In this document: piece after piece, positions 14,281 to 53,065 of the stretch | Numbering within the stretch: position 1 is the first letter of the stretch | Layout: each line of letters begins with the position of its first letter | Virus record (IMG/VR): IMGVR_UViG_3300032309_001150 | Location: 1 to 54,146 of that record | Length of the DNA stretch: 54,146 bases | DNA from: a virus | Taxonomy: Duplodnaviria; Caudoviricetes | Reading direction: 5' to 3' (one strand) | The notes under the pieces: generated by a model | What the model was told of the DNA's origin: nothing | Database searches by the model: none | What the model saw: the letters and a program-made list of their open reading frames with translations, nothing else | Position numbers and translations under genes: made by a program

Positions 14281-14484
14281 TTACCAGTCAGCGCAGGACG
14301 TATTCTTTTTTGTCGTAACCATTACGGTTGTTTTGCCGCCATCTTTCATCGGCTTTGCAGGCACTGTGTTCATTGGAACAACTGTCATTGGCATTGGTTT
14401 TGCCATCGGCTTTACCATTGGTTTTGGCATTGGCTTTGCAGGAGCTTTTGCATACATAGTTTTGGGCGCAAGTCGTGAACTCAT
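14281..14484 (-). CDS. small basic Pro/Met-rich protein
   Basis: KPM repeats, MKDGG motif; AGGAG RBS before ATG 14484. Confidence 0.55.
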   Translation of the reverse strand: MSSRLAPKTMYAKAPAKPMPKPMVKPMAKPMPMTVVPMNTVPAKPMKDGGKTTVMVTTKKNTSCADW

Positions 14485-14498
14485 GGTTTTTTCTCCTG

Positions 14499-14750
14499 TT
14501 ACCAGCCGGGGCAATCCCAGCGTTTTAATGATGCCTTTGCTCTTGGCGCATCCCCTTTGGAATGCTCAACCACACCGCTCATTCTGGCGCAGAAGGAATC
14601 CTTCCGTGCTCCGCCCTTTGGTTGCGGAGCTTTCAAATTGCTTCCAGTCTCGCGGTTGTATTTTGCCCGACCCTTGGCTGTTAATCCAGCACCTTTTTCG
14701 ACGGACAACTTTTCACCACGACCAACAGCAAGTGATGGATTTTTTGCCAT
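14499..14750 (-). CDS. small basic phage protein (DUF6321-like)
   Basis: GLTAKGRAKYNRETGSNLKAP...SFCARMSG...LKRW. Confidence 0.7.
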   Translation of the reverse strand: MAKNPSLAVGRGEKLSVEKGAGLTAKGRAKYNRETGSNLKAPQPKGGARKDSFCARMSGVVEHSKGDAPRAKASLKRWDCPGW

Positions 14751-14752
14751 GA

Positions 14753-15199
14753 TTACCAGCAGGATTTTTTGGCGGAACCGCCAGATTTCATTTTGGCTGT
14801 TTTGGCTGACTGCTTGAAGGCTTCAGCAGTTGGAGCGCCTTTTGAGCCCGGCTTACGCATGCGCTCACCAGAGCCTTCAGCGATTCGTTCACGTTTTGCA
14901 TTGATATTTTCATACAAGCCGCCGCCCTTCATTTTTTTGGTTGAAAATAATTTTTCCACAATTTTTATCCTCTCGGGTTTTGAGGTTGCTTGGCTGACAA
15001 TTTTTAAACGCTCTGGCTGGCTTTTACCTTCATCATAAAACCCAGCCTTTTTTAAAGATTGGACAACTCCGCCATCTTTCATTTTTTTATCAGCCTTGAC
15101 AAACTCTTTGCCAACCTTTTGAGGTACACCACCAAAGCCGCCCTTGGTGTGAGCGGCGGCTTCCATCAAACGATGTTGAGCAGGTGATTTGCTTGGCAT
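14753..15199 (-). CDS. basic protein of three short modules joined by MKxGG linkers
   Basis: likely start MPSKSPAQ at 15199; MKDGG, MKGGG, MKSGG. Confidence 0.7.
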   Translation of the reverse strand: MPSKSPAQHRLMEAAAHTKGGFGGVPQKVGKEFVKADKKMKDGGVVQSLKKAGFYDEGKSQPERLKIVSQATSKPERIKIVEKLFSTKKMKGGGLYENINAKRERIAEGSGERMRKPGSKGAPTAEAFKQSAKTAKMKSGGSAKKSCW

Positions 15200-15200
15200 G

Positions 15201-17867: not shown

Positions 17868-17885
17868 TTTTCACCTATTTTGAAG

Positions 17886-17914: not shown

Positions 17915-19156
17915 TTAAACAAACTTTGGAGCCTTTTGGGGGCTATTCATCGTTTTCGGATACGTCAAGTTGCTTTCCAATTTTGCGTTTTTCATCTGTG
18001 ATGCATTTTCTGCATCCAGAGCATTTCGCAAAGCTTTGTTTTCAACTTTACCGCCCTTTTTGTACGTCCCGCTAAAATTCAGTTGAGTTTTAGGTTTTGG
18101 TACAGGCTGGTTTCCTTGTGGCATCGCGACGGGTTTGCCTGTGTTAACAGTTCCCCCCGTCGCGTAGTGCTTTTTTGAAGCACCGCCATTCTTGTAACCG
18201 CCAGCGTTGGACAAAGCAACACCGCCAGTAGCGGCGTTGAGCATGGCTACACCACCAGTTGCGTAACGGTTGTAGCTATCGTCCCTTCTAGCCGTGCTGA
18301 TTTTTTTTGATGGCGTTTCGGTGGTTTTGGTAAGGCTCCTGTCTTTCTCGGCTGGAACATCACCGCCATTTTTATAGCCGCCAGCATTACTCATTGCAAC
18401 GCCGCCCGTAGCCATTTTGCCGCCGTGTTTCAATGCCAGCTTAGTGCCCTTGCCGCCCTTGTGTTGCTGGGTGTCGTGTTGCTTGAAAGCTTTTTTGACC
18501 ATAGCCTTGTCTTGCGCCATGTCAACCTTGCCGCCGTCTTTTTTGTATTTTTGAAGATGACTAACCGCTGACGAAATTACATTTTTAACTGGCCCGGCTG
18601 ATTTTACGAGTGGCGTTGGTGTTCTCGGTGTTGGTGGTAGAGCTTTTGCAACTGACGAAATTACATTTCCAACTCGCCCGGCTGATGTTGGTGCTGGTGC
18701 TGGTGTTGGAGCTTTTGCAACTGACGAAATTACTTTTTTTGCGCCGCCCAATGCTTTTTTAAGGAAGCCGCCAAGTCCTTTTTTGACAACCTTGGTTTCG
18801 CCGCCTTCTTTCATGCCAGCCACACGCTGATTTACAACTACTTCTTTGGAGATTTTTGAAGCAGGCATTTTTCCCATTTTGGGGGAAGTTGTGACTTTTG
18901 AGGTCATCGACTTTTGTGCCTTCATGCGATCTCTCGCGGAGGGCTTGCCGGGTGACTTGACAGGTGCATTGACCGCAGGACGACCAACAAACGCAGGGGT
19001 TGATGCCAACATGCTCATCGCGCCGCCTTCAGCCATTTTTGTGTGGCCGTCGGCAGATCCGCCTTTTTTCATGTTGACGTGACCACCCTTTTTGAGCTTC
19101 AGAACAACTGAAGGCTCGGTAGTCTCCATTTTTACCATCGGTTTAAATTCAGCCAT
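17915..19156 (-). CDS. Lys/Gly-rich low-complexity protein with ~15 xxxGG motifs
   Basis: 413 aa; LKKGG, MKKGG, MAEGG, MKEGG, MATGG, YKNGG x2, YATGG x2, YKKGG and others. Confidence 0.75.
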   Translation of the reverse strand: MAEFKPMVKMETTEPSVVLKLKKGGHVNMKKGGSADGHTKMAEGGAMSMLASTPAFVGRPAVNAPVKSPGKPSARDRMKAQKSMTSKVTTSPKMGKMPASKISKEVVVNQRVAGMKEGGETKVVKKGLGGFLKKALGGAKKVISSVAKAPTPAPAPTSAGRVGNVISSVAKALPPTPRTPTPLVKSAGPVKNVISSAVSHLQKYKKDGGKVDMAQDKAMVKKAFKQHDTQQHKGGKGTKLALKHGGKMATGGVAMSNAGGYKNGGDVPAEKDRSLTKTTETPSKKISTARRDDSYNRYATGGVAMLNAATGGVALSNAGGYKNGGASKKHYATGGTVNTGKPVAMPQGNQPVPKPKTQLNFSGTYKKGGKVENKALRNALDAENASQMKNAKLESNLTYPKTMNSPQKAPKFV

Positions 19157-21839: not shown

Positions 21840-22403
21840 TTAACCAGCAAATACTGGTGTGGGGATCGGGGTGTCAATATTGTCCAAACCGTCGCCTTCA
21901 ACCTGTCCAAGCCTACGGCCTGAACTGTCTCGCCCTTGTTGCGCCTCTGCTTGCAAGCGAATCTTGTTCGCTTCTTCGAGTGGAGCCTCGTGGTGAAAGT
22001 GCGCCATGATCTCTTGGTAAAGTTCCATCGGAATCTTGAACAAAAGCATTTCGTTGCACGCGATAAAACCAGCATGCTCTCCAGCCTTTACGCGCCAATT
22101 TTCGAACCCGGGAATCTCCTCCACCTTGATGGGGACGTAACCGAGTCGCATGCGCTTGTCGATGCTGTCGTAGCCGTTGGTCGTTGATAACCAGCAAACG
22201 TGAAATCCCTTTAATTCAGGGACATTGGGCAATGCGCTTTGTGTCCATTCATCCTTCCACATTTTTTTACGCTCTTCGGATGAAAAGAACTTCTCCTCTG
22301 GGGCCTCACGATCTGAATCATGACTTGCGCGATTTTCGCGTCCACCAGCAGTAAGATTTTTTTTAAGACGTTTATCCATTTTTGTAACTCCTTGTTGACT
22401 CAA
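21840..22403 (-). CDS. head-module hypothetical protein
   Basis: 187 aa between scaffold and decoration genes. Confidence 0.7.
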   Translation of the reverse strand: MSQQGVTKMDKRLKKNLTAGGRENRASHDSDREAPEEKFFSSEERKKMWKDEWTQSALPNVPELKGFHVCWLSTTNGYDSIDKRMRLGYVPIKVEEIPGFENWRVKAGEHAGFIACNEMLLFKIPMELYQEIMAHFHHEAPLEEANKIRLQAEAQQGRDSSGRRLGQVEGDGLDNIDTPIPTPVFAG

Positions 22404-23365: not shown

Positions 23366-23796
23366 ATGAAGGCTTTCATCGCAAGTGGATCACCTGTAAT
23401 GGTTGCAATGACTTCGTGGTCATTCAGCACCATAAACAAAACCGGGTCTTCGTCCTTGGGTGCGCCGGGGATTGGAACCTCCCAGCGATCACCACCCCAT
23501 TTGGGTACGCGGATGTAATCACCCTCGGCACACCAAACGCCCTCAACCCACGGCTCCATCGAATCGCGTTTGCGAAACGCTAGAGGGCCAAGCGCTATGA
23601 CTTTGCCAACCATGTTCTGCCACTTTTCGGTTTCTCTGGTTTCTTCAACCAAAACAATCCCGCTTGCGGTTACTGTCTTCTTTGTGCGGCGCAATTGCAC
23701 CAAAACTCTTGCACCAAGTGGACGCGCTCCGGGGTCTACAACAGGAAATGCTTCCCGTAAATCAGCGGCATTACCCGCTACCGTGCTATCACTCAT
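23362..23796 (-). CDS. groES: co-chaperonin GroES (Cpn10)
   Basis: PLGARVLVQ, TASGIVL, GKVIALGP, LNDHEVIA motifs. Confidence 0.85.
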   Translation of the reverse strand: MSDSTVAGNAADLREAFPVVDPGARPLGARVLVQLRRTKKTVTASGIVLVEETRETEKWQNMVGKVIALGPLAFRKRDSMEPWVEGVWCAEGDYIRVPKWGGDRWEVPIPGAPKDEDPVLFMVLNDHEVIATITGDPLAMKAFI

Positions 23797-23971
23797 CGTC
23801 TTTTTCTTTCATAAGGTTATCAAGGATGTCCAAAGACTCCTGCAAGCCTGCGTACTGCCCCACCATTCGTTGGTACGATTCAAAGTTGATGGCATTGCCT
23901 TCAGTCAATGAATTTTGTATTTCGAACTGACGCGCTTTGACAGCGCTTATGAGGTCGTTGATGTAGCGCAT
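23789..23971 (-). CDS. hypothetical helical protein
   Basis: 60 aa, FESYQRMVGQYAGL; coupled to neighbours. Confidence 0.7.
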   Translation of the reverse strand: MRYINDLISAVKARQFEIQNSLTEGNAINFESYQRMVGQYAGLQESLDILDNLMKEKDDE

Positions 23972-24141
23972 TACTTGCTTTTGCCCTTGGACTGCTTCAT
24001 GGTGGACAGGCCACCGTTTTTCTTACCGCTGTCTGAATTCGCTGTAGATGCCTGCCCTTTTGTCACATCCTCGCCTGTTGCCAGACGATAGTGTTGACGT
24101 GTTGGGCCTGCGGGCGTGCCGGGGATTTTGTTAGTAGCCAT
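23971..24141 (-). CDS. small basic protein, 56 aa (not in ORF track)
   Basis: MATNKIPGTPAGPTRQHYRLATGE...KKNGGLSTMK; start overlaps the portal stop. Confidence 0.65.
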   Translation of the reverse strand: MATNKIPGTPAGPTRQHYRLATGEDVTKGQASTANSDSGKKNGGLSTMKQSKGKSK

Positions 24142-26621
24142 CAATCACTCCTGAGTTCGCGCTGTGCGCGTAGGTTAAGTTCCATTGCAGTTTTTTCCTG
24201 CTCGTTACGCAACTTCAATTCGTCTGCGGTGATGTCCGCAGTCTTCATGCGTTCTGTTGTAAGGTTGTCTTCGGCGTTCATTGCAACCTTGGTTTCCAAT
24301 TCTTTCTGCTTGTGCGCCATCTCCGCTTGATCGCGTGCGGCGCGGCGCTGTGTCTCTGCCATAGACGCCTGCAATACCGCTTGCGATTCGGCGTCCTGTT
24401 GCGGCTGTGGCTGGAACTGCTTCATCATCTCGCCAAGCTTTTGTAGGGCCGGAACAACCTGCGCAAACACCTGCTCGGTGTCGAGCTTGACGTGGTCCGA
24501 AGCCAGCGCAATGGCCTTGTCCAGCACTTGGGCATTTTTGTTTTCTTCGTACTTGCCAAGCTGGATCTTTGTGCCTGCGGTGACGTAGGTTTCCATTTGA
24601 TTCGTGTACCACAACGTCATGTGCTGTTTGATGTGTTCCAAAACCATAGGAATGTAGTTTTGGGCGATCAAAGGGTTTGATCCAAGGGTTGGGTCTAGCG
24701 CAAAGTTCAAGTGGGCTTGTATGTGCGCTAAATGGTCTTGGCGAGGGTAGGCAAAGGCAGGCTTGCCAAGTGTCATGGCCGCGTTTTCGTTGGCCGCATC
24801 CATTTCGGTGGCTTTGCTGGTGGCAGGCATCAATTCCGAGATGTTTGGCACTTTCATTTGCTTCAGGATGCGGTTTAGCACCGCGTTTTGATCAAATGCC
24901 TGTGGATAGGTCGACATCAACTGCAAAACTGCTTGGCTTTGGGCCATGCGCTGTGTTTCGCTAAAAATATGTGGGTCTGAAACAGGGACGATGTCGCCGT
25001 TTTTCTCAAAATCTTCTTTGCTGATCTGCAAATCCTCGACAATCTCGCCCTTGTCTTGGTCATCCAAATACCAGCGATTGATACGGCCCAAAACTTGTAA
25101 TACACGGCGCTGTGAGTCGTGCAAACGGGCGTGGATTGAACTGAAAACCTTGGCTCCCTGCTCAATCAGCGCCTGAGTTGTGCCAACTGGGGTGTTGGAG
25201 TTGACGTCGGCAATCTTTTCCTCGGACGTGCTGACCACGCCCTTGGCGGCCTTGTCCAACCAGCCTAGCAACTCAAACAAAACGGGACTTGGCGGGTTGA
25301 ATGGCATTGGCATGGCGATCTTGCGGATGTCGTCGATGCCGGGAGCCGCCTCAATTTCTGTGACTTGGGTGATTTCAGGGGTTTGCGTCTGCCCGCTGTT
25401 ACGTCCGCCCTTGAGCTTTAGCATTGTCAAGGAGTTGTTTACATGAGCGGTGTCCAGCAACGCACGCAAAGCACCTGTCAAGGCCGCGCTGAGGCCGCCA
25501 ATCAGGTGCGGCAGGCCGATGGCGTATGCGCCGCGCCACGGAATGAACTTGAACTCGACCAGCCAGTCCAGTTTGTTCATTTTCTTGTCGCCCGACTCCC
25601 AGTTACGGTACAAGCCAACGGTCTTGTTGGACGACTCGTCGATCATCAGGATGTACGGCGCGGTCTTGCCTTTGGCAAACTTGTCGTCTTCAACTTCCAG
25701 CCATGTGTAGATGTGGAACACGCGGCGCAGGCCGTCCTCGTTGTCCTGATACTGGCGACCTTCAATCTTGTTGCTGGCCTTCTCGGCTCCAGACTCTTCG
25801 GGCTCGGCGTTGGCACGCACCAAGTCGATGTCGCGGTACAGGCCAGACTCCACCCGTCGCTCAAATTCCCACTCGGTTATATCCTGTATCTCTGCTACAC
25901 GTTGCGATGTGTAAAAGTTGGCCGCCGCAAATGGCAACAGGATGTTGTCGATGGGAATGAACTCGGCGCAGGGACGGCCAAGGTTCTCGTCAAACCAGAT
26001 CTTCATGTACTGTGAGCCACCCAAAGGCAATTGAGTCAACAGTTGCTCTTGCTCGTCGCGGAATTCGGCGATCTGCTCTGTCAACTGCCAATTCATGTAG
26101 TCGCGCTTGCGCTCGGCTCGGTCGGTTTTCTCGTCAGTAACTTCGCCAAGCACCTTGATGCGCACGGGGCCGTCGGGCGGAAAAAGTTCCTTCATTGCGC
26201 TGGCGGCAAAGTCCACGCAGGCTTCAGCCATCACGGGGTGAACAACGCGGCTTGCGCCTTGGAACTGAGCGCCGCCGGGGGCGTCATCGCCCAAGCCAGT
26301 GCGGCGAATGCCGTCCTCGTACTGCTTGTCGCGCTTCTTGCGGGCTTCCTTGTCCTTTTCAACCAGATCCAAGTAACGGGTGGTGAACGAACTTAGGTCA
26401 ATCAGGTTGATGGATTCGGCCAAGTTTTCGTAGAAGTCGGTTTCATCCCGAGGGCCACGGAAATCATCAGGCATGGTGACAATAGCGCCGCCATCGGGGG
26501 TTTCTTCAATGTCCGACTCCTCGATGTCAGGCATTTCAACAGTTTCGCCCTGCTCTTCTGAGCCGCTTTGGGGGCCAATAAACCTGTTGTAATCTTGCTC
26601 AATGGGCATTTCGGTAGCCAT
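24141..26621 (-). CDS. portal protein
   Basis: 826 aa; GASRVVHPVMAEA, LPLGGSQYMKIWFD, PVGTTQALIEQG, IVPVSDP; between terminase and scaffold. Confidence 0.85.
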   Translation of the reverse strand: MATEMPIEQDYNRFIGPQSGSEEQGETVEMPDIEESDIEETPDGGAIVTMPDDFRGPRDETDFYENLAESINLIDLSSFTTRYLDLVEKDKEARKKRDKQYEDGIRRTGLGDDAPGGAQFQGASRVVHPVMAEACVDFAASAMKELFPPDGPVRIKVLGEVTDEKTDRAERKRDYMNWQLTEQIAEFRDEQEQLLTQLPLGGSQYMKIWFDENLGRPCAEFIPIDNILLPFAAANFYTSQRVAEIQDITEWEFERRVESGLYRDIDLVRANAEPEESGAEKASNKIEGRQYQDNEDGLRRVFHIYTWLEVEDDKFAKGKTAPYILMIDESSNKTVGLYRNWESGDKKMNKLDWLVEFKFIPWRGAYAIGLPHLIGGLSAALTGALRALLDTAHVNNSLTMLKLKGGRNSGQTQTPEITQVTEIEAAPGIDDIRKIAMPMPFNPPSPVLFELLGWLDKAAKGVVSTSEEKIADVNSNTPVGTTQALIEQGAKVFSSIHARLHDSQRRVLQVLGRINRWYLDDQDKGEIVEDLQISKEDFEKNGDIVPVSDPHIFSETQRMAQSQAVLQLMSTYPQAFDQNAVLNRILKQMKVPNISELMPATSKATEMDAANENAAMTLGKPAFAYPRQDHLAHIQAHLNFALDPTLGSNPLIAQNYIPMVLEHIKQHMTLWYTNQMETYVTAGTKIQLGKYEENKNAQVLDKAIALASDHVKLDTEQVFAQVVPALQKLGEMMKQFQPQPQQDAESQAVLQASMAETQRRAARDQAEMAHKQKELETKVAMNAEDNLTTERMKTADITADELKLRNEQEKTAMELNLRAQRELRSD

Positions 26622-26670: not shown

Positions 26671-26991
26671 ATGAATAAAAAGATTCCACTACACGATTAC
26701 TTCGAGGCATATCGGCCATTCAGTCGAGACGGAATTGATTGGTACGTCCTCAGCAATTTGAAGTTTGATCCCTATGTTATTTCCATTCATTCCGATGAAG
26801 TGTCTGCTCGTGATCATGCGCGTCGCCTCAACGCACTTTGGAGGGAAAGGTTCTATGGTAATCATCCAGCATACTTGCACGCTCCTTCTCAGCCTCGCGG
26901 TAAGTTGGGTAGCGCTTTCCTTCTGCGGAAGTTAAAAAATTTACTGGCTGGTACTCTACTTTTTCTCCGTTCCCGATTCCAATCACGTTAG
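26671..26991 (+). CDS. possible antisense hypothetical gene
   Basis: fills the 26622-26827 gap, GAAAGG RBS upstream; 3' half overlaps the convergent gene. Confidence 0.4.
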   Translation: MNKKIPLHDYFEAYRPFSRDGIDWYVLSNLKFDPYVISIHSDEVSARDHARRLNALWRERFYGNHPAYLHAPSQPRGKLGSAFLLRKLKNLLAGTLLFLRSRFQSR

Positions 26992-28570
26992 TTGGATAAT
27001 CGGCTCCGCGTGACCAAGGTTGCAGACCGCCCATTGGGGCGGCTTTGACGGAGCCGGGGATGCCTGACACGCTTTCAGGAAACATGAACTTTTCTAAGCC
27101 CTGTATTTTTCTACGCAACGCCTGTTGCTCTGCCGACATTGGTTTAGCGCCTGCGCCTTCATATTCTGACTTTGTCATGAACAGCCTGTCTTTTTCGTAG
27201 TCAGATTTTCCGTATTGGATTTTTGCATCTTTGCCAAGCACTTTTTTGGCCGCGCTTTGCGCATCAAGAAACTCTTGCGGGATTTTGCCCTTGGTAACAG
27301 CGTCGTAAGGAAATACCACAATACCACCTAGTTTTGGATTGTGGCTGATAGCCATGTCACTACCAAGCATCCTTGCAAGGTCAGCAATCTGCTCTTTAGT
27401 CAACCCATCTTTGGTTTTGATCAACATCGCCGATGCGTCCTTGATGTTGTTTGTCATCATGGGCAGGAAACGGTGGCCAGCCATCGCTTCTTGATTCAAA
27501 TCAACGCCCATTTGAGCCACCTGTTGGCGCAATTTTTTGTTGGCTTTTGGGCCTTCGTTAATATTGCCAGCCCTTGGCACATCAATAGCTTGCAAAGGGT
27601 TTAGTTCAAGCTCCCCCTTTGTATTGACATAAGTGCCTTGACCTTCTCTTGCCTTGGTTTTGCCAGTACCCAGCTTGGGGTTTGCCAGCAAAACGTCGTT
27701 CAAACCTTGCCTAAAGCCGTAGGACGTGCCTTGGCCAAGGTCAGGGGCCGTGGCCTCAACTGTAAATGTTGCTGGCGTGAATGGGCGGCGCACGTCGCTC
27801 ACAAGGGTGTTGGCTCCACTTTCCGCGACGCGGGGCAGGTTTTTGGCTCCCTTGACAACCTCTGGAACAGCTTTGGCGGCTTTGACCATTGCAAGCGGCC
27901 CGACTGGGTTGAGAGCAAATTCTGGAACCATGCCTAACAATGGAAATTGGTCCTTGCTTCCTTTTGAAGTGATTCCATACTTTTCGTACAAGTCCCTGAA
28001 TTGTTCGCCTCCCATGAATGGCTTTTCACTGGCATAGGGCTCGACGGTTGGGGGAACTAACTTGCCGCCCATGAGCGACTCGCGCTTGTAGCCACGCTTG
28101 TTTTGTTTTGCGGCTTGCTCTCGCAGGTAGTCGATTCCTTGCAAGCCAAAGTTTGCGATGTCAGATGCGCCACCAGCCATAGTGGCTATAGCGCTGTTTA
28201 TTGCGTAATCCTTGGCTCCACGAGGCGTGCCAAGAAGCCTAACTTCTTTGCCAGTTTGCTCGGACAATTTCTTTGCCATACGACGACGGAACTCAGCCTC
28301 GTCGTCTTCCACGTCGTAGCTTGGCGCACCCATTGGCTCAACGTAGCCACCATCTTCATAGCCGCGTTCTTCTTGCGCCTCTTGCTCGACCTGCATGTTT
28401 TGCTGGGGCTCAAGCTTGAACTCGTTGAGTTCGTCGCGTAACGCCAGCGCGGCAGGCGGGTAATCGTGCTCTGGAGCGTCTTCGTCAAACGCTTCAGGCT
28501 GGCCACCGTTGGCCAAGTGGTTTGCCAGCTTGGTGTGGCCCCACCCTTTAAGCAGTTCTAGATGTTGCAA
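26828..28570 (-). CDS. hypothetical protein with LANGG/YEDGG motifs
   Basis: 580-aa ORF, TTG start overlapping the upstream gene end. Confidence 0.7.
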   Translation of the reverse strand: MQHLELLKGWGHTKLANHLANGGQPEAFDEDAPEHDYPPAALALRDELNEFKLEPQQNMQVEQEAQEERGYEDGGYVEPMGAPSYDVEDDEAEFRRRMAKKLSEQTGKEVRLLGTPRGAKDYAINSAIATMAGGASDIANFGLQGIDYLREQAAKQNKRGYKRESLMGGKLVPPTVEPYASEKPFMGGEQFRDLYEKYGITSKGSKDQFPLLGMVPEFALNPVGPLAMVKAAKAVPEVVKGAKNLPRVAESGANTLVSDVRRPFTPATFTVEATAPDLGQGTSYGFRQGLNDVLLANPKLGTGKTKAREGQGTYVNTKGELELNPLQAIDVPRAGNINEGPKANKKLRQQVAQMGVDLNQEAMAGHRFLPMMTNNIKDASAMLIKTKDGLTKEQIADLARMLGSDMAISHNPKLGGIVVFPYDAVTKGKIPQEFLDAQSAAKKVLGKDAKIQYGKSDYEKDRLFMTKSEYEGAGAKPMSAEQQALRRKIQGLEKFMFPESVSGIPGSVKAAPMGGLQPWSRGADYPTNVIGIGNGEKVEYQPVNFLTSAEGKRYPTYREAEKERASMLDDYHRTFPSKVR

Positions 28571-31500
28571 TGAGTCCGCCTTTCTTTTCTGTCATTTCCG
28601 GCGTGTCCAAACGCCATGTCCCGATGTTGCCGATGTCTGATTTCACGGCGTTGGGGTTGTAGATGCCGAGGTTCTTGGTGTCAAGTTCCTTGGTGTAGTA
28701 GGCGTCATGGCCCAAATTTTTGATGGCCCTTTGCACCGTTGGATGCTCCATCTGCGTCCAGTTGGCAGAAAGTTCAGGGTCGGTCATTGCTTGCAATTGA
28801 CGGTCGATGTGGTCTTTGGGCAAGCCTGAATTTTTGTGCAGATACTGGCGCAAAGCTTCAACATGCTCAGGTTTATCGTAATCGAATGGGTTTTTCACCT
28901 GAACGCGCACTGGTATGACGTTGGCGTTGTCAACATGTTTGTCGGGGTCTGCAAACTTGGTGTCTGGGGTGCTGTACCTGCCATACGCTACATCGCTGAA
29001 TGGGTCCTTGAATTCCAACGCGCCGTGCGCAAAACCCGATGCAAAGGTGGGATCAGGCGTCACAAAGATTGAATCAGCCGTTGTCGGCGAAAACCGCGTG
29101 AAGTTGCGGCGCGTACCGTGGTACATGCGATCCTTCACCGCGCTCGGTTCCAAGAATGCGGCTTTGTTTGCGTCGGCCTGTTCGCGTGGCAGGATCTTGC
29201 GTGCGCCGTAAACTGGTTTGACCTGCTTGAGCCTGTCCGCGTAAGGGAATGCTGGCTCGACCTTGACGTTGGCGGGCGGGCGGGCAAGCTTGGCCGCCTT
29301 CTCTGCCGCCATCTCAGCACGCACCTCATCAGCCAGCGACATGACGGTCTTGGCCGCCTTGCCTGCGCGAAGTGATCCGCCCTTGTCCATGTGCGCAAGG
29401 CCGCCTTTGGCCTTACTCAGCTTCTTGCCCGGCACGTCAGAGCCTTTGGGCGCGACAAACAGCTTTTCGTAAACATCGTGCGGCTCACTGCGACCGATGC
29501 GCACCCTGCCGACCACCTCACCAACACCAAACAGGTCGCCACGGCTTCTTGGGCGTAGCGTTGGGTTAGCACCCGTGCCCGTGTTAAATAACTCCGTAGG
29601 GCTGGCGTATTCGGTAGCCAAGCCGTACTGGTGGCCAACGTCACCCTTCTCGATGGTGGCAATGAAGTTCAGGTCGTTCAGCAGTGGGTCCCCGCCCTCT
29701 GGCTTGAACAATCCCTTGCGTACTAAATTGCTTTTGGTGTACGAGCCTGTCTTGGGGTCAAGCACCTCAAGTCCTGACTGGCTTTTGGCTGACATCATGG
29801 GTCGATTGGTGGATGGGTCGATGACAACGCCCAAGTCTTCCACGATGCGCATGTCCAGCACCTCGCCAGTGCGCGGGTCGATGAACGCACCTGACAAAAA
29901 GTCCTCGCGTCTCTTGCCAGTTTTTTGCAAGATGCGCTCGACCAGCTTCTGTTGGTTGGGAAACTTGTCGGGTTGCAGAAACCAGCGGTTGGGCACTGGG
30001 ATGATGGGAGAGCGGCCCTCCTCGCCCATCTTGGCCACCATGCCACTGACTTGGCCATACTGCTTTTCCGCCGCCATCTCGGCCTTGACCTGCTCGGCAA
30101 TTTTGTTCAGCGCTCCAGCGCCCCTAGCGACACCGCCCTTGGCCATGCCATCCGGTTCATTGGGCGGTAGGTCGGCGGGCACGTTGTTGTCGTACAGCGC
30201 ACGGCGCATGACATCCACGTCCTTTTTTGGGATGTACTCTGGGATTTGGTAGCCTTTGCTCTTGAGCCACTCGGCTTCATAATCAGTGAGCACGTTCCTA
30301 CGGCGCTGAAGGCCAGCGTATGGCAAATCGTCAACATCAGACCATTTGCCAGTGTTCACAAGGTCATGCACCATAGGCTGGTACTTACCAATCACTGGCT
30401 CATCTTGCTTGCCCTTGATTTGAGCAATGCGAACTGGCGGATTTTTCATCGCCGCTACATCTTCACCCTCTGGCAAGTCAGCGGCGTAATTGCCCAACTC
30501 AAAGCCGCGCATGGGCTTAACTTCTACGGTGGCATGCGATTCACCCTTTGTATCACGCAACGAAAGAATGCGTTTATTTCCGCGCCACACGTCATCGCAA
30601 TAGGAACCAACGCAGTGCCCCATTACGTTACCCTCGTGCTCCAAGGCGGCTTGCATGTCGAGGTAGATAGGATTATGAATTGTGCTTTGGCCACTGGGAT
30701 CTGTGTACACCTCTCGGACTGGATCGTACGACCAGCCCTCTGGTAGCGGGGTGTCTTTGTTGGCGCTGATCTCCACCCACCTGTATCCTGTTGGATACTC
30801 TTTGTAGGTCTTGGTGGCCCTGTTGTTTTCCATGGCCCGCCTTGCGGCCTCTTCTTCGCGCACCCTTTTGTCGTTCACGCTCTTGACGGTGTCCGCAACG
30901 GTGACCTTGTTCAACTGATCGGGGCGAATCTCGTCGTTGTCCAGTCTTTGATAAACGTCTTCGACGAGGTCTTCAAAGCCCAACGGTTGTGAATTGCGTG
31001 GCCCGTAGGTAATTACCTGCTCTCCAGCAGGCAGATCCTTCATCCACGGGTTTTTCTCAATCATGTCCTTGTGAGGCGTGTACGAATGTATGGCATCGTC
31101 TGATAGCGTTTCCCACGCTTTGGCCTCGGGGCTTTCGCCCACACCCTCTACGGGCACGCCTACCCTCTTGCGCTTGGCCGTCACATATGGCGTTGCACGT
31201 TCAACATCACCTGTAAACCCTTTGAGGTGCGTGACACCTTTCTCGGCAAGCTTGCGCACCGGGTCGTTTCTCGTGCCCATCTGCTTTTTGATGTAGTTTT
31301 TCAGGTTGCTGTTGACCCACTGCCGTCTGGCCAAGCCTTTTTCCAACTCTTTGCTCAATAGTTCGACGCGGTCTGCGGCGGCTTTGTCGCCATCAGCGGC
31401 CCTTACGCGGTCACCGGCAATTGACTCTTCCAACATCTTTTGCGTGTTTGGCGAGAAGGCTTGCGTTTGTAAATCCCGCAACTCCGCATTCAAGTCTCCG

Positions 31501-32696
31501 CCCGCCCACTGGCCAGCGTCCTCGCGCATGATGGATGGCCTGCCAACTGGGGTCATCTTGCTGGCCCCGCGGGCTGATGGCATAGACCGCTCAACATCAT
31601 CGGCCATACCCTTGATGGCCTTGATACCACGCATGACGCCGCCTTTCGCCATGTGAGCCAATCCACCTTTGCGGTATCCGGCCTTTTGCATTCTGGTCAA
31701 CAGGTCTTCACTGAGCAATTGCGTCGGATCGTTTTTGGTGTAATCCATCTGCGTGATGTCGCGGCCCTTCTCCAACTCCTTGGCCGCCTTGAAGTCTTCG
31801 AACACAGAAGCGATGGGCGTGGGCAGGTAGTTCACATCCAGATCTTCGCCCGTGAGAATGATGGGGTAGTCGCTGTGTAAGTCGGGCCTGTCAATGACGT
31901 TGTCATCCAAACGGAACAGCCTGTTTCCCAAGTCCAGCGTGCGTGCCTGAGCCATGTTAGGGTCGAGGTTCTTCTGAAGCATCTGCTCCATCGGAACGGT
32001 TCGGCCCTTCTCGCCACCCACGCCACGCCCAGCAAAGATGTCGGCCATCAAAGCGCGTTGGTCGTACGTCTTGACCGCCTTGCGGAAGTTGCGCGAACCC
32101 AAGTCGATGCCGTTGGGAAAGATCAAGCGGCCATTGTTGTCGACCGTAGTGCTGGCCTTGTCACTCAGCTTCTGGATCTGCTCGGGTGACATCTTCTTGC
32201 GTTGGTTTGCAAAGATGTCTGCAAACTCGCTGAACATCGTGGAGTTGGACTTGTGTTGTTCAAGGCCGCCGACCGATGGCGTCCAGATCACCTTAGCGCC
32301 CTTGGGGACCTGCGCCTTGTTGCGGTTCAGGATGCGCGTTCCCATCTTCTTGTCGGTCACGCCAGCCACCGCCCGGGCCTTTGCGTACTCTGGATCAATC
32401 AGTTGGATGCCCGAGAAGCCGGGGCCGCCGAACTTACCCTTCGACAGATCGACCTGCATGCGGTCGTAAAAGATGGGCTTGATGTACGAACCCTCGTGCT
32501 GGCCGTACGCCTCCGACGCCTTGATGGGCGGCTTGCTGGCCTCTTTGGCTTTGCGCTGGGCCTCTAGCTGGAACTTGTCTAGCTTGGCGGCTCTCTCTGC
32601 GGCCATCTCAGCCCTGACCTCGTCAGCCAACGTCTTGAAAACCGCAGGAGCGCCTTCTGCGATTTCGTCGAGTGCTTTGTATTTAGACATGGTCAC
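28548..32696 (-). CDS. large polyvalent protein: four modules including PcfJ-like and ART-PolyVal-like ADP-ribosyltransferase domains
   Basis: LEHEGNVMGHCVGSY...ILSLRD...HATVEV (PcfJ-like); MYHGT...FVTPDP...KNPFDY...AVKSDIGNIGTW (ART-PolyVal-like). Confidence 0.7.
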   Translation of the reverse strand: MTMSKYKALDEIAEGAPAVFKTLADEVRAEMAAERAAKLDKFQLEAQRKAKEASKPPIKASEAYGQHEGSYIKPIFYDRMQVDLSKGKFGGPGFSGIQLIDPEYAKARAVAGVTDKKMGTRILNRNKAQVPKGAKVIWTPSVGGLEQHKSNSTMFSEFADIFANQRKKMSPEQIQKLSDKASTTVDNNGRLIFPNGIDLGSRNFRKAVKTYDQRALMADIFAGRGVGGEKGRTVPMEQMLQKNLDPNMAQARTLDLGNRLFRLDDNVIDRPDLHSDYPIILTGEDLDVNYLPTPIASVFEDFKAAKELEKGRDITQMDYTKNDPTQLLSEDLLTRMQKAGYRKGGLAHMAKGGVMRGIKAIKGMADDVERSMPSARGASKMTPVGRPSIMREDAGQWAGGDLNAELRDLQTQAFSPNTQKMLEESIAGDRVRAADGDKAAADRVELLSKELEKGLARRQWVNSNLKNYIKKQMGTRNDPVRKLAEKGVTHLKGFTGDVERATPYVTAKRKRVGVPVEGVGESPEAKAWETLSDDAIHSYTPHKDMIEKNPWMKDLPAGEQVITYGPRNSQPLGFEDLVEDVYQRLDNDEIRPDQLNKVTVADTVKSVNDKRVREEEAARRAMENNRATKTYKEYPTGYRWVEISANKDTPLPEGWSYDPVREVYTDPSGQSTIHNPIYLDMQAALEHEGNVMGHCVGSYCDDVWRGNKRILSLRDTKGESHATVEVKPMRGFELGNYAADLPEGEDVAAMKNPPVRIAQIKGKQDEPVIGKYQPMVHDLVNTGKWSDVDDLPYAGLQRRRNVLTDYEAEWLKSKGYQIPEYIPKKDVDVMRRALYDNNVPADLPPNEPDGMAKGGVARGAGALNKIAEQVKAEMAAEKQYGQVSGMVAKMGEEGRSPIIPVPNRWFLQPDKFPNQQKLVERILQKTGKRREDFLSGAFIDPRTGEVLDMRIVEDLGVVIDPSTNRPMMSAKSQSGLEVLDPKTGSYTKSNLVRKGLFKPEGGDPLLNDLNFIATIEKGDVGHQYGLATEYASPTELFNTGTGANPTLRPRSRGDLFGVGEVVGRVRIGRSEPHDVYEKLFVAPKGSDVPGKKLSKAKGGLAHMDKGGSLRAGKAAKTVMSLADEVRAEMAAEKAAKLARPPANVKVEPAFPYADRLKQVKPVYGARKILPREQADANKAAFLEPSAVKDRMYHGTRRNFTRFSPTTADSIFVTPDPTFASGFAHGALEFKDPFSDVAYGRYSTPDTKFADPDKHVDNANVIPVRVQVKNPFDYDKPEHVEALRQYLHKNSGLPKDHIDRQLQAMTDPELSANWTQMEHPTVQRAIKNLGHDAYYTKELDTKNLGIYNPNAVKSDIGNIGTWRLDTPEMTEKKGGLIATSRTA

Positions 32697-49089: not shown

Positions 49090-50070
49090 TTACCCCAGTT
49101 GGTTGCCTTCAGCATCAAAAAAATTGCCGTCTTCGTCGTAGTAGACAGCACCCTCTGGAATCTGTGACGCGGAGTCTTGAAATACTGATCCGCCTACGGC
49201 TCTTTGAACTGGTTGCTTGTTCAACATTGAAGTCAAACTTGTCATGTCGCCAGTTTCCAAGGCTTTATAAATCGCATACATGGTTGCAATCTCTTCCAAG
49301 CCACTCAAACCATATTGGCCAGCTTGGCCGGGCTTTGTAGTAATTTCCGTAGTTCCAGTAGGCGCTTGCATGCCTGCCGTCAACGACGCAAATTGTTTGG
49401 CCTGCTCCATTGGATAGTTGAGCCTGTCTTGCTCATTTTTTTGTTGGACAGCGCCAAGGTCTTGCATGGTTTTCAGGCCCGAAGTGCCAATTTGATTTTG
49501 GACTTGACCTGTTTGAGTAAGCGATTGGCCAGCTTGAACGCCGCGAGTTAAGTCGTTTTGGGCGGCTGTCATGGCGTCTTTGTAGCCACTGCTCAACGCG
49601 CCATATTGTTGGCCAGTCAACGCGGCCTGCATGTCAGCCAATGTTTGACCGCCCTGTTGCGCGGCCCGTTGAGATCCAAAGTTTCCAGAACCAACCGTCG
49701 CGGCTTCAAACGCACCCATGTTTTGCATGTAGTTTTTGTTTGCAAGTCGAGCCATTTCCTCCACCACATTTTTGGTGTAAGGATTCATGTAGTTTTCAAC
49801 AATCTGGTTTGCGCCCGTGTAGCCTGCTTGCGTCAGTAGATCTTGCGCAGTGCCTGTGCTACCAGAGCCAGCAAATCCCGCCTTTGGGGCCATGTTTATG
49901 GCCTGTTGCTGGAGAGGCGACAGACCAGCTACGCCACCCTGTTGGACGGCGTTTTTGCCAAGGTTGATGGCGTCCTGTTGGAAATCCGTCAGGTACTGAG
50001 GAAGAGTATTCTGTTTCTGTGACGTTTCGGTCAGGCTTGGTAACGGATCACCTTGCAAAAAATCAGCCAT
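49090..50070 (-). CDS. putative ejection/pilot protein
   Basis: Gln/Gly/Ala-rich; LSPLQQQA, YMNPY, GNFGSQR. Confidence 0.6.
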   Translation of the reverse strand: MADFLQGDPLPSLTETSQKQNTLPQYLTDFQQDAINLGKNAVQQGGVAGLSPLQQQAINMAPKAGFAGSGSTGTAQDLLTQAGYTGANQIVENYMNPYTKNVVEEMARLANKNYMQNMGAFEAATVGSGNFGSQRAAQQGGQTLADMQAALTGQQYGALSSGYKDAMTAAQNDLTRGVQAGQSLTQTGQVQNQIGTSGLKTMQDLGAVQQKNEQDRLNYPMEQAKQFASLTAGMQAPTGTTEITTKPGQAGQYGLSGLEEIATMYAIYKALETGDMTSLTSMLNKQPVQRAVGGSVFQDSASQIPEGAVYYDEDGNFFDAEGNQLG

Positions 50071-53065
50071 TTTGCGCTTCCTTCAAGTAAGCCAACGGCG
50101 ATTTAGCCTTTGGTGGAATTTTGCCAACGTGCGCAGATCGTTTGTGTTCGCGGATCTGTTCCCTAAATTTGTCCAAAACTTTAGCGCCAGCTTTGTTAGA
50201 ACCGTTACCCAAAGCGGCCACAACATCCGAGTCAAAGACGTATTCACCGTCGGCCAGCATGGCGGGGATGTCGTCGCTTTGACCGTCACCAGCACCGCGC
50301 ACATACGCACCTTGACGGTAATCATGACGGCCTTGAACCAATGGTACGCCAGACACGGGGTGAGGCATGCCGCCAGTGTTCATGGCTTGACCGCCTTCGT
50401 CCATCATATTCTCGCCGCGAACGCCAAGAATTTCCAGAGGATCTTGCGGTTTTCCGTAGGTGTAATAAGGTGATGCAGGATTGGGCATCTTTGGATTGGG
50501 TTGACTTAAACCGCCGACAGCAAAAGGCTCGGCAGTTTGCATATCCTCAGCGTAAGGCATAGAGGAATTCATGTCGCCCGCATCTGATTCAGCGCCGAGA
50601 TCCGCGCTTGTTTCGGGGGCCATCTGCCTGCTGTTGCCGCCCAAGCCGCCCATAGTTGGTTGCGCCATTTCTTGCTCAGGGTCTTCGTATTCCATTTCGT
50701 AGCCGGGAACGCCAAGATTTGTGTACAGGTCACTTTCTTCTTGCGGCGTGTACTGTTGCAAATTAGGTTGTGATGGCGTGACGACACGCGCTGGCCCCAT
50801 ACCAAAGTTAGTTGTTCTTGGCGCAATGCTTGGCATGGTCACGGTTGGGGCTTTGTAGCTTGATCTGTCCTTACTAGCGGTGCTCATCAAAGAGGCAATC
50901 ATGGCCGCCGTCAAACCAGTTTTTTGCACTTGAGGGTCTGACAAAAAGGCTTTCAATTGGTCGCCAGCTTTTTGTAATGGCGATCTTGTTGACGTTGCTG
51001 TTGGCGTTGCTGTTGGTGTTGTTGTTGGTGTTGTTGTGCCAGTTGTGTTCGCATACGCAGGTGTATCCGTCTGCGAGGAAGTTCCTCCCGTGTAACCAGA
51101 TGAAGTATTGTTGACGGTTTCATCAAACACATCTGCGGCGCGATAAAGAACGCCGTTTTTGTAAATGTTTCCACTCTGATCCTCGGTGTACTCATCTTCT
51201 GCCGCACGGTAGAGGACGCCGTTTAGGTAAAGGTTTCCACTTGAGTCTTCGGTGTATACATCCTCTTCCGGCTTTTCTGCCGCACGATAAAGCACGCCGT
51301 TTTTGTATACGTTTCCACTTGCGTCCTCGGTGTAAATGTCTTCTTCTGGGGTGCTATCCACAGCAAATGATGGGTCAGAGACATCCATCTGTGGGCTTGT
51401 GTATTTCGTGTAGTCTGGATTTGCAAAGACGTCACCGCCCTCTTCGAATCTTGGTAATCCACCTTTTTTCATGGTCGTAAGACCTCCGTGCTTGTAATCC
51501 ATATCTTCGTCTGGATTTGTGTTGTACCTTGGATCAACATAAGAATCTCGGCTGTCGAAGTCGTAAGTTGGGTAATCAATAACTGGATCAGGGCCATAGT
51601 CGTAAATTGGATTTGATTGTTCTGCGGCTGACACCAATTCAAATGTTCCATTGGGGTTGACCAACCACACGTTACCCGCTTGATCCGTGGTTTGATACGG
51701 CTGTATAGTTTCTTCGGGCTTAGGTGGCTCAACATAGTCGTAAACGGGGTTTGAAGGCTTCTCTGCGGCCTTGATTAAATTAAATGATCCGTCAGGGTTT
51801 ACTTGCCACACGTTGCCCGCATCGTCTGTGGCTTCGTACGAAGAGACGGTTTTTTCTGGCGTGGGTTCTGGTGTTGGCTCTGCGTAGTCGTAGACAGGAT
51901 TTTCGGTGGTGTCAACAGCGTCAGGAATCGGATTTCCAAAGGCATCTACAAGGGTGAGACTACCATCAGCGCCTTGGCTCCAATAATTTCCAGCTTCATC
52001 TTGAAGAATTTCAGGGGGCGCATTTTTGCTTGCTTCGGCCAGCGGAGACTCTTTGACTGGCTCTGGCGCTACAGGCGCTACGGGTGCAGGCGCAGGGATA
52101 GAGATGGGAATGATTGGCGTTGGGCTGGGTGAGGCTTCATTTCTTGCGGTCGAGCTTGCTTGAGCCAACGGTGATTCAATGACTGGCGCTTCGTTTATTG
52201 GCGCAACAGGAGTTGGTTCAGCAACGCTTGGCGCTGGAGTTGGTTCGGGTTGGCTGACTTGCGCCAAAGGTGATGGTGCTGGTGGCTCACCGTAATCGTA
52301 AACAGGATTGGGGGGCTCACCGTAATCGTAGACAGGGTTTTCTTCAACGGGAGGTTCGCCGTAGTCATAAACAGGATTGGGCGGTTCAACGTAGTCGTAG
52401 ACGGGGTTTTTTTCCGCAGGCACTTCGCCAATGTCGTAAACGGGGTTTGTCACCGGGGGAGGTGCAACTGGCGGCGCAACTGGCTCTTCTGGCTTTTCTG
52501 CCGCCCGATAAAGCACGCCGTTTTTGAAGACATTGCCAAGCGAGTCTTCGGTGTATTCGTCTTCTTTTGGTGGCGCTATGACCGACGTAGGCGGTTTGGG
52601 GGCTACGGGTGTTGTTGGTGTTGTTGGCTTTGCTGGAGTTGCAGGCGTAGTCGGTTTTTTGTCCGGAATCACCGAGTTGATAACCGAGGTGATGGCTTTG
52701 CCAGCAAGCGCGGCGGCGGCGGCATCTGTGGCCGCATTTGTTATTGCGTCGCCTTTTGAAGATCCGCTTGATGCGCTCGATGACGTTGGGGTGGTCTGCG
52801 TAGCAGTGCCAGATCCTGAAGACGTAATTGGTTTTGCCGACTCCGCTGGAACCACCACCGAGGTTACGGGCGGTGTAGTTGTGTCGGTTGTTGTTGGTAC
52901 TGATAGGGTTGTGGGGATAGTAGGGTCAGGGCTTGCAGGCTCTGTGGGAGCGGTCGATCCTCCAGAAGCTGGAACAGTTGGCTTCGAAATAACGCTGGTC
53001 AGTTTGCGCTTGGGCTTTAAAAACAGCGTGTTTCGTTTTTTCTGGAGGTTTGTAATATTGACCAT
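50063..53065 (-). CDS. 1000-aa repeat-rich virion protein with tape-measure-like C-terminal domain
   Basis: Pro/Thr-rich, NPVYDY and YTEDxxGN repeats; C-terminal GAGDGQSDDIPAMLADGEYV. Confidence 0.7.
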   Translation of the reverse strand: MVNITNLQKKRNTLFLKPKRKLTSVISKPTVPASGGSTAPTEPASPDPTIPTTLSVPTTTDTTTPPVTSVVVPAESAKPITSSGSGTATQTTPTSSSASSGSSKGDAITNAATDAAAAALAGKAITSVINSVIPDKKPTTPATPAKPTTPTTPVAPKPPTSVIAPPKEDEYTEDSLGNVFKNGVLYRAAEKPEEPVAPPVAPPPVTNPVYDIGEVPAEKNPVYDYVEPPNPVYDYGEPPVEENPVYDYGEPPNPVYDYGEPPAPSPLAQVSQPEPTPAPSVAEPTPVAPINEAPVIESPLAQASSTARNEASPSPTPIIPISIPAPAPVAPVAPEPVKESPLAEASKNAPPEILQDEAGNYWSQGADGSLTLVDAFGNPIPDAVDTTENPVYDYAEPTPEPTPEKTVSSYEATDDAGNVWQVNPDGSFNLIKAAEKPSNPVYDYVEPPKPEETIQPYQTTDQAGNVWLVNPNGTFELVSAAEQSNPIYDYGPDPVIDYPTYDFDSRDSYVDPRYNTNPDEDMDYKHGGLTTMKKGGLPRFEEGGDVFANPDYTKYTSPQMDVSDPSFAVDSTPEEDIYTEDASGNVYKNGVLYRAAEKPEEDVYTEDSSGNLYLNGVLYRAAEDEYTEDQSGNIYKNGVLYRAADVFDETVNNTSSGYTGGTSSQTDTPAYANTTGTTTPTTTPTATPTATSTRSPLQKAGDQLKAFLSDPQVQKTGLTAAMIASLMSTASKDRSSYKAPTVTMPSIAPRTTNFGMGPARVVTPSQPNLQQYTPQEESDLYTNLGVPGYEMEYEDPEQEMAQPTMGGLGGNSRQMAPETSADLGAESDAGDMNSSMPYAEDMQTAEPFAVGGLSQPNPKMPNPASPYYTYGKPQDPLEILGVRGENMMDEGGQAMNTGGMPHPVSGVPLVQGRHDYRQGAYVRGAGDGQSDDIPAMLADGEYVFDSDVVAALGNGSNKAGAKVLDKFREQIREHKRSAHVGKIPPKAKSPLAYLKEAQNG

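Follow-up and report, generated by a model that had tools for sequence, protein, structure and literature searches.

What is a five-residue double-glycine tag doing in a set of phage proteins that are not homologous to one another? The question is raised by the Caudoviricetes record IMGVR_UViG_3300032309_001150 of IMG/VR, which is complete, carries a terminal repeat of 24 bp and was analyzed over all of its 54,146 bp; it is called the window here. An initial annotation of this DNA had noticed that the pattern [MFYLK][AKE]xGG (strict pattern) recurs in late proteins and had interpreted it as a signal for capsid loading, cleavage or ejection. It is believed that polyvalent and ejected proteins of phages reach the host cell and undergo processing, and no common junction signal has been described for them. 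We show here, by comparison with related phages, that Phi-[K/A]-x-G-G(-x-[V/A]), with Phi = M/Y/F/L, behaves as a conserved short linear motif. Its carriers are a limited number of late proteins, in which it sits in predicted-disordered connectors and in short tails at the C-terminus. They comprise a 413-amino-acid (aa) repeat protein, small basic proteins built of several mini-domains, a polyvalent protein and a tape-measure-like protein. At the level of sequence, what establishes the motif is the comparative evidence from relatives.

Results

The 1382-aa polyvalent protein, whose gene is located between those of the large terminase and the portal, is built of four modules A to D (Table 1). 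Pfam finds PcfJ in module B (6.3e-07) and ART-PolyVal in module D (6.6e-06, a match under Pfam's cut-off of 31.2 bits). Six copies of the motif, strict or loose, occupy residues 341-345, 349-353, 851-855, 1095-1099, 1103-1107 and 1370-1374. All of them fall at the three junctions or in the C-terminal tail, as the initial annotation had said in placing the motif in linkers and near termini. In twenty related polyvalent loci the homology blocks end at residues ~345, ~851, ~1107-1109 and ~1376, coinciding exactly with these six copies, and thus domain swaps in related genomes do break at the motif. The order of the modules varies: one locus has D, C, then B, then A (L102), another C then B (L091) and a third C then A (L094), with other modules lying in between. 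The junctions of the relatives typically hold two copies 8 residues apart.

For the statistics we used 120 further polyvalent proteins, the best 120 of 226 matches to module B at E<=1e-5. They contain the motif 522 times, compared with 74±8 after residue shuffling and 162±11 when the GG pairs are kept; the 102 more distant among them gave 458 copies versus 143±11 (GG pairs kept). The GG-to-GG spacing in the polyvalent relatives peaks at 5 residues (84 versus 11 shuffled) and at 8 residues (73 versus 13). Of 341 ends of high-scoring segment pairs (HSPs), 28% lie within 10 aa of a copy, while positions drawn at random do so in 6% (Mann-Whitney p=2e-21, a p-value that overstates independence because the sequences are related). 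In a locus with a split polyvalent gene (L100), each separate open reading frame (ORF) still ends in a motif copy followed by a short basic tail. The last copy is found within 25 aa of the C-terminus in 76 of the 120 relatives (median 16), and the tails behind it fall into a small number of conserved classes, which recur even where the last domains are unrelated. The motif is kept at C-termini where nothing follows and no hinge is needed, which therefore points to recognition. As judged from these alignments, it is exactly at the motif that modules change their order, are gained or lost, or become separate genes.

The modules have features of their own. In module B (30147-31637, minus strand), which is PcfJ-like, E693, H699, C700, C705, D720 and E724 are near-invariant in 119 sequences, as are H726, K766, K768, Y777 and D783, a pattern suggestive of metal binding or of an active site. 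Module C (29415-30131, minus strand) is 76-79% identical in most relatives and 65% in one, compared with ~30% for the adjoining modules, and this conservation holds whatever its neighbours are. It gave no Pfam or PHROG match and none among cultured phages; this module may be what incorporation requires. An Ala/Glu-rich, helix-like segment of the ADEVRAEMAAE..AAKL type appears at residues ~23-40, ~866-880 and ~1121-1138 of the 1382-aa protein, i.e. at the N-terminus and directly after two motif junctions. Several polyvalent relatives end in KSC-x-CHD, and in some a string HEMQH can be read in the sequence.

The motif reappears in the 1000-aa Pro/Thr-rich protein. Its residues 913-971 match phrog_6090 'tail length tape measure protein' (E=2.4e-06) and Pfam finds no family in it; we class it with the tape-measure proteins on the PHROGs match together with the motif architecture. 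The double copy MDEGG/MNTGG is followed by IPAMLADGEYVF, which fits a segment P-A-x-[LV]-x-x-G-E-[FY]-V preceded by Phi-x-x-GG. A search with the last 120 residues gave 9305 cluster representatives at E<=1e-3 and 3411 at 1e-10, in which the domain is almost always C-terminal. Within IMG/VR we found 326 relatives of this domain, and of the 72 distinct ORFs kept, 68 carry at least one hydrophobic-x-x-GG in the 75 residues that precede the conserved D-x-I-P-A...GEYV segment. The 150 top-ranking representatives stand for 50%-identity clusters; 142 of them could be evaluated and 125 of these carry a copy within 50 aa upstream, with a sharp spacing peak at 30-34 aa.

Annotated tape-measure proteins of cultured phages contain the same type of C-terminal domain. 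The protein of Nitrincola 1M3-16 shows FATGG, the GEFV segment and then FSTGG, while that of Caulobacter GB2A has MARGG, a GEYV segment and YMDGG three residues from the end. The genes after the GB2A tape measure have sizes like the 326/586/626 block of the window and likewise end in a lytic tail protein, a comparison by size and order rather than by alignment of the intervening genes. Lambda gpH reads FATGG (733-737), PAGIVHRGEFVF, YATGG (778-782) and MRDGG (842-846), so the earlier statement that gpH carries FATGG and YATGG around its GEFV segment near the C-terminus is correct. Direct similarity between the 1000-aa protein and gpH is at the level of the motif only (blastp E=1.5 over 16 aa). 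In lambda, gpH is cut to gpH* and gpHC in the Gly-rich C-terminal region; in the portion of PMC12617516 used here, cleavage site and catalyst are given as not known. Were gpH cut directly behind FATGG, 116 residues would come free, which is about the reported size. In these comparisons the motif brackets the C-terminal GE(F/Y)V module of tape-measure proteins, that of lambda among them. Residues 200-640 of the 1000-aa protein hold repeats of the types NPVYDYGEPP and YTED-x-x-GN-x-Y-x-NGVLYRAAE between long Pro/Thr-rich stretches.

The main carrier is the 413-aa Lys/Gly-rich protein. Its 447 relatives in IMG/VR were confirmed by tblastn; the 80 that were retained yielded 66 distinct ORFs (209-571 aa), each holding 7-16 strict copies. 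An alignment of 40 sequences contains invariant GG columns at residues 24-25, 118-119, 245-246, 319-320, 324-325, 334-335 and 368-369, separated by segments that vary in length and sequence. The ESM Atlas model has a predicted local distance difference test score (pLDDT) of 0.39 and a predicted template-modelling score (pTM) of 0.15. AlphaFold2 (AF2), supplied with the 40-sequence alignment, reached a mean pLDDT of 52.5 and a pTM of 0.21, with 219 of the 413 residues below 50; only five isolated helices appear, and the motif-rich stretches 20-51 and 244-341 are mostly below 50. A structured Gly-rich repeat is hence unsupported by this modelling. Given this predicted disorder, the motif behaves as a short linear motif and not as part of a folded repeat. 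Pfam returned 0 families at E<=0.01 for this protein, so there is no match to PF10685, which we take to be the KGG stress-protein repeat. In a phage collection its sole match was one uncultured record, and a PDB sequence search with the 413-, 321- and 345-aa proteins gave nothing below E=0.1. In most relatives of the family the chain finishes with GG-x-x-Cys, Cys being the final residue; that of the window copy does not.

The third group comprises three small basic ORFs that together span 14281-15265. For the 148-aa protein, a 170-aa ORF when read from an upstream TTG, we used the ATG start of the relatives; MKSGG precedes its short C-terminal tail. In the 170-aa ORF, phrog_16759 is matched at residues 23-63 and phrog_16028 at 115-160. 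Most relatives unite three mini-domains in one protein, joined by K-F-K-GG and M-K-x-GG. The third one is in most of them fused behind MKxGG, and the window splits it off as the 83-aa ORF exactly at the motif. Indeed, loss, gain or fusion of mini-domains in relatives always falls at a motif copy. The remaining ORF of 77 aa (the 67-aa protein of the initial annotation, counted from an internal ATG) has MKDGG before its tail. The small proteins end in Cys/Trp tails (SCW, SCADW, DCPGW), and a C-terminal cysteine signal recurs in small proteins, in relatives of the 413-aa family and in several polyvalent relatives.

The mini-domains are also found as free-standing ORFs of ~50 aa in T7-like cyanophages, pelagiphages, roseophages and other phages of marine and freshwater origin, for example in S-RIP2, Limnohabitans DC33 and BUCT555 (loci L104-L106). 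Their N-termini lie a few residues from the GG position of the fused forms. One such ORF occurs in a record classed as Inoviridae, and among three records inspected, one places the ORF just past the head-tail connector gene. These free-standing ORFs thus encode at most putative virion proteins.

Two further proteins are minor members. The 57-aa ORF after the portal gene, the 56-aa protein of the initial annotation, is a weak one: some positional counterparts in relatives end in a K-x-x-GG-L-S/T tail (GG-L-S..KK), others do not. The 580-aa protein between the polyvalent and portal genes has no family matches, and its relatives carry MKAGG at the place of the window's LANGG.

How much of this could have been seen in the window itself? 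Scanning 70 ORFs with the strict pattern gave 28 matches instead of the about 35 that had been claimed: 13 in the 413-aa protein (about 15 had been reported), four in the 1000-aa protein, three each in the 170-aa ORF and the 1382-aa protein, two in the 580-aa protein, and one each in the 77-aa ORF, the 57-aa ORF and an early 76-aa ORF at 34771-35001. Seven of the copies listed earlier do not fit the pattern, including YRKGG, MDKGG, EKKGG, MDEGG, MNTGG and RAVGG. The last of these had been the basis for counting the 326-aa protein, which contains 3 GG versus 4.6 expected. Residue shuffling within proteins gave 5.3±2.3 matches, and without the 413-aa protein 15 are observed versus 4.9±2.2; in neither case did any of 500 shuffles reach the observed number. 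Because GG is over-represented in some carriers, a stricter null kept every GG pair intact. It still separates the total (28 versus 12.0±3.5, 0/500), as well as the 413-aa protein (13 versus 1.8, 0/500), the 1000-aa protein (4 versus 0.55, p=0.002) and the 170-aa ORF (3 versus 0.67, p=0.024), while the 1382-aa protein (p=0.10), the 580-aa protein (p=0.19) and the single copies (~0.1) are not significant on their own; the pattern was fixed after viewing the data, which makes all these p-values optimistic. Enrichment thus holds overall under both nulls and is lost once the 413-aa protein is left out and GG pairs are kept (15 versus 10.2±3.3, reached by 49/500 shuffles).

In the window, then, the motif is real yet carried by three proteins, the 413-aa protein, the 1000-aa protein and the 170-aa ORF. 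Three more carriers are added by conservation in relatives, which makes the earlier count of at least eight generous. The expectation that every putative ejection protein carries the motif failed, as the 326-, 586- and 626-aa proteins have no strict copy. What stood is the central observation that one short motif is common to non-homologous late proteins, at module joints and C-terminal tails, where it is kept in hundreds of related phages, and that it is missing from capsid, portal, terminase and fibre ORFs (0 strict matches). The initial observation is therefore partly confirmed, with a motif narrower than claimed.

A survey of 1576 ORFs of related loci bears out this restriction. The density in copies per 100 aa is 2.95 for the 413-aa family, 1.02 and 1.22 for the small-protein families, 0.63 for the 1000-aa family, 0.29 for the polyvalent family and 0.23 for the 580-aa family; unassigned ORFs have 0.05, and the capsid, portal, terminase, 345-, 199-, 187-aa and fibre families 0.00-0.04. 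Counted from GG in the 413-aa family, position -3 is Y/M/F/L in 59% and -2 is K/A in 65%, -1 is K/T/A, and +2 after GG is V/A/K/M/I; GG in the control families has no comparable context. The codons differ synonymously (GGC, GGT, GGA; AAA, AAG), and therefore the constraint acts on the protein. This rules out a cause at the DNA level, such as a slippery heptamer or a recombination site. Met at -3 as the relic of a start codon was also considered and is ruled out, since Y/F/L are as common as M.

Table 1. Coordinates of the motif copies, their carriers and other assigned features of the window.
Feature	Position	Strand	Remarks
1382-aa polyvalent protein	28548..32696	-	modules A 1-345, B 354-850, C 856-1094, D 1108-1369
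Junction A|B, 1382-aa protein	31638..31676	-	YRKGG...MAKGG, 8 residues apart
Junction B|C, 1382-aa protein	30132..30146	-	MAKGG
Junction C|D, 1382-aa protein	29376..29414	-	KAKGG...MDKGG, 8 residues apart
C-terminal tail, 1382-aa protein	28551..28589	-	EKKGG + 8 residues
1000-aa Pro/Thr-rich repeat protein	50063..53065	-	tape-measure-type C-terminal domain; 4 strict, 2 loose copies
Triple copy, 1000-aa protein	51434..51496	-	YKHGG, MKKGG, FEEGG, 8-residue spacing; between two repeat regions
Double copy, 1000-aa protein	50369..50404	-	MDEGG, MNTGG; N-terminal edge of conserved C-terminal domain
Tape-measure-type C-terminal domain, 1000-aa protein	50066..50368	-	GDGQSDDIPAMLADGEYV...
413-aa Lys/Gly-rich repeat protein	17915..19156	-	predicted-disordered; main motif carrier; 13 strict copies, 18 GG
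148-aa small basic protein	14753..15199	-	170-aa ORF from upstream TTG; mini-domains parted by MKDGG, MKGGG
83-aa protein	14499..14750	-	third mini-domain as separate ORF
77-aa ORF	14281..14514	-	67 aa from internal ATG; Pro/Lys/Met-rich; MKDGG before C-terminal tail
57-aa ORF	23971..24144	-	after portal gene; weak member; ends KKNGG + basic tail
580-aa protein	26828..28570	-	between polyvalent and portal genes; N-terminal LANGG, YEDGG
187-aa head-module protein	21840-22403	-	conserved; averages 71% column identity (30 sequences)
LTAGG, 187-aa protein	22341..22355	-	near N-terminus; misfits strict pattern
Small terminase	34095-34682		phrog_1482
Large terminase	32693-34111		Pfam Terminase_6N, 8.9e-24
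Portal	24141-26621		phrog_1216
Cpn10/GroES-like 144-aa protein	23362-23796	-	in head module between portal and scaffold-type genes
321-aa scaffold-type protein	22400-23365	-	coiled-coil
304-aa capsid protein			PHROG head families; syntenic MW202545.1 gene annotated major capsid
199-aa protein			conserved
345-aa protein			
888-aa fibre-like virion protein	15201-17867	-	common to cyanomyoviruses, ~39% identity
796-aa gene spanning record ends	1-1347 joined with 53079-54122	-	

The remaining genes complete the picture of the window, in which the minus strand holds nearly all genes and no tRNA genes were found. Tail, fibre and lysis genes were assigned as well, Pfam SU10_adaptor is matched by two proteins that the scan output does not name, and the 1000-, 326-, 586- and 626-aa genes form a block, with the 1000-aa gene at its head and, at its end, that of the 626-aa protein, which has an SLT transglycosylase domain. 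In MW202545.1 the gene at the position of the Cpn10-like one bears the same annotation. The 321-aa protein was set aside, as it reads as coiled-coil and scaffold-type. In 15 ORFs of relatives its family has M-A-x-GG around residues 30-62 (AADGG near residue 16-20 in the window), and all members have GG right before the conserved C-terminal ~40 residues. Full-length relatives of the 888-aa protein occur in T4-like cyanophages, a phage class other than that of the remaining structural module. The 796-aa protein has a hydrophobic Gly/Ala-rich N-terminus, then a long coiled-coil-like stretch rich in Ala/Gln/Lys/Glu and finally Pro/Thr-rich repeats with a recurring APVG-x-LKP unit.

Discussion

We tentatively favor, with somewhat less than even confidence, the reading that the motif is recognized for the proteolytic maturation of ejected or internal proteins. 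The site would be recognized while virions assemble or during infection, and cleavage there would separate modules and trim C-terminal tails. The fused gene forms would then be polyproteins, and the 413-aa protein could give rise to about a dozen basic peptides of short length. The cutting enzyme may come from the host or be an unrecognized phage enzyme, as could be the case for the cut of lambda gpH to gpH*. We favor maturation because the architecture is polyprotein-like and because small residues at P2-P1 stand in an extended conserved context. Polyvalent proteins are in addition expected to be processed, as the relevant part of PMC5512222 has it, and lambda gpH is cut in a similar region, where the enzyme is likewise not known. 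The loading or cleavage proposed in the initial annotation is to this extent partly supported, and we would read the motif as belonging to the junction or processing signals of virion precursor proteins.

A number of observations weigh against maturation. Pfam scans of 52 window proteins (9 + 43), in which remote homologues could be missed, found no peptidase family except an M15 endolysin-type one and, in particular, none of clan CE or C39; PHROGs on 29 window proteins gave no prohead or other protease. The signature HExxH is absent from the 1382-aa protein and from every late protein. The 187-aa head-module protein looks enzyme-like, with H68, C70, S73, D79, C116, N117, E118 and H137-H138 invariant in 30 sequences and a conserved L-x-A-G-G-R around its LTAGG (L17 invariant, G20 at least 90%). 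Its AF2 model (mean pLDDT 64.6) found no Foldseek match in the PDB at E<=0.001, and VIA-align wide gave a best Z of 4.9 over the helical part only, so this model provides no fold assignment. Moreover, 13-18 cuts would break the 413-aa protein into peptides of 5-40 aa, an unusual outcome, and copies paired at a fixed 5- or 8-residue spacing would be superfluous for cleavage and would suit multivalent docking. The hydrophobic residue stands at P5 in the window and P4 is K/A in 65%, different from adenain and the ubiquitin-like proteases. Within the window, the loss of significance without the 413-aa protein under the stricter null counts here as well, and so does the kinship among the polyvalent relatives. 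The tape-measure protein of T5, considered as a precedent for a cut at GG, is ruled out as such: according to the portion of PMC10038345 used here it is cleaved after Arg R1127, not at GG.

One may speculate further that a single maturation mechanism with a Phi-x-x-GG code is shared by three groups, i.e. lambda-type tape measures, tape-measure-like ejection proteins of short-tailed phages and polyvalent effectors carried in the head. We consider this extension doubtful. If it held, the fused genes would be true polyproteins, the peptides of the 413-aa protein would travel with the DNA, and gpH would be cut at or next to its FATGG.

Alternatively, the motif could remain uncleaved and serve as a docking or loading signal, a glycine-flanked, strand-like peptide that binds a virion component. 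Candidate partners would be the portal, the scaffold, the capsid interior, the tail hub or DNA; avidity would come from the presence of multiple copies, and C-terminal copies with their tails would be incorporation signals. We hold this to be possible, though on the unlikely side. It agrees with disordered regions in which hydrophobic positions -3 and +2 are conserved. The pairing of copies at fixed spacing and their large number in a single protein fit multivalent docking at least as well as cleavage. Every separate polypeptide keeps a C-terminal copy and a tail, a small number of conserved tail classes recurs in proteins that otherwise differ, and the split-off 148-aa protein has its own Cys/Trp tail like the fused form. 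No protease was found in the window scans, and in lambda MRDGG falls within gpH residues 818-849, which sit on the hub protein gpI (PMC12617516, in the portion used here). Docking alone fails, however, to explain why the motif marks every module boundary of the polyvalent proteins and why the module order is free.

A further alternative is a passive connector, a helix cap or hinge that lets modules fold and thread independently, without specific recognition, and that persists since similar short flanks ease the swapping of modules by recombination. The location at domain boundaries and in disordered stretches, the extensive reshuffling at the motif and the fact that no enzyme or partner was found are all in line with it. 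A mere connector is nevertheless unlikely in our view, as it should not be retained at C-termini where nothing follows, nor should the side chains at -3, -2 and +2 be conserved, and the 413-aa protein has 13-18 copies without folded domains to connect. Given the synonymous codon variation, a 15-nt copy would also be a poor substrate for homologous recombination. A by-product of composition, that is Lys/Gly-rich tandem repeats in one protein plus chance matches elsewhere, could draw on the 15 versus 10.2±3.3 count, on a pattern defined after the fact and on the 326-, 57- and 580-aa members, which are individually at chance level, yet it is very improbable and largely excluded by the comparative data, as positions are conserved across relatives at 30-60% identity, copies exceed both GG-preserving expectations in the polyvalent relatives, HSP ends cluster at the motif, and 50%-identity representatives keep the motif at a fixed distance ahead of the tape-measure C-terminal domain.

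As far as our literature searches show, the motif flanking the tape-measure module has not been singled out before. Phrase searches returned no precedent for a bacteriophage prohead protease acting at Gly-Gly and no link between DUF3008 and phages, and searches with the motif pentapeptides gave no phage-protein case in the portion inspected. In the main text of PMC5512222 the words 'glycine' and 'linker' occur 0 times, while its domain alignments, which lie outside the portion used here, might show the motif.

As a delimiter of exchangeable modules, the five-residue tag would provide a rule for parsing large mosaic proteins into units and a handle for cargo engineering. It also offers a concrete and cheap test of the old lambda question of where and how gpH is cut. 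The tag-preceded C-terminal domain is very common (9305 representatives), and therefore any function found would apply widely.

Comparison with known systems

Double glycines are familiar as processing sites. The adenovirus protease, ASFV pS273R, ubiquitin-like proteases and C39 peptidases have GG at P2-P1 and a hydrophobic residue at P4. The window shares with them a Gly-Gly with an upstream hydrophobic residue, which here would separate units of a precursor. The parallel to an adenovirus- or ASFV-type consensus drawn by the initial annotation does not carry over, given the shift of the hydrophobic residue to P5 and the lack of a matching peptidase family in the window scans. Bacteriocin-type C39 systems use an N-terminal leader of 15-30 aa ending in GG together with a C39 peptidase/ABC exporter, whereas the copies in the window are internal or C-terminal. 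The motif is thus not a member of the adenovirus, ASFV, ubiquitin-like or C39 systems, but it could work like them.

Internal proteins of T4 carry an N-terminal capsid-targeting sequence that ends in L/I-x-E and is removed by the prohead protease gp21. Under the cleavage reading, the likeness would be a short shared peptide on unrelated cargo, removed after incorporation. T4 encodes its protease, however, and none was found in the window scans.

Closer are the polyvalent proteins. The 1382-aa protein strings together unrelated effector-type domains (ART-PolyVal, PcfJ-like) and is encoded among virion genes; its four homology blocks are shuffled independently, and its relatives show many domain combinations. 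A zincin-like peptidase (MPTase) domain is frequent, although not universal, in polyvalent proteins. The window protein differs in having no HExxH, hence no zincin-like peptidase signature. Polyvalent proteins of phages and conjugative elements have been proposed to be processed into units, and in the portion of this work used here the processing is ascribed to the zincin-like peptidase domain within them (Iyer et al. 2017, PMC5512222).

The closest known relative is the lambda-type tape-measure C-terminal module. The window phage differs from lambda in its SU10-type adaptor matches, in having no assigned tail-tube gene and in a motif spread far beyond the tape-measure-like protein. In lambda gpH as in the 1000-aa protein, a Phi-x-x-GG copy precedes P-A-x-[LV]-x-x-G-E-[FY]-V close to the C-terminal end, and the tape measures of lambda, Nitrincola 1M3-16 and Caulobacter GB2A have a further copy behind the GE[FY]V segment.

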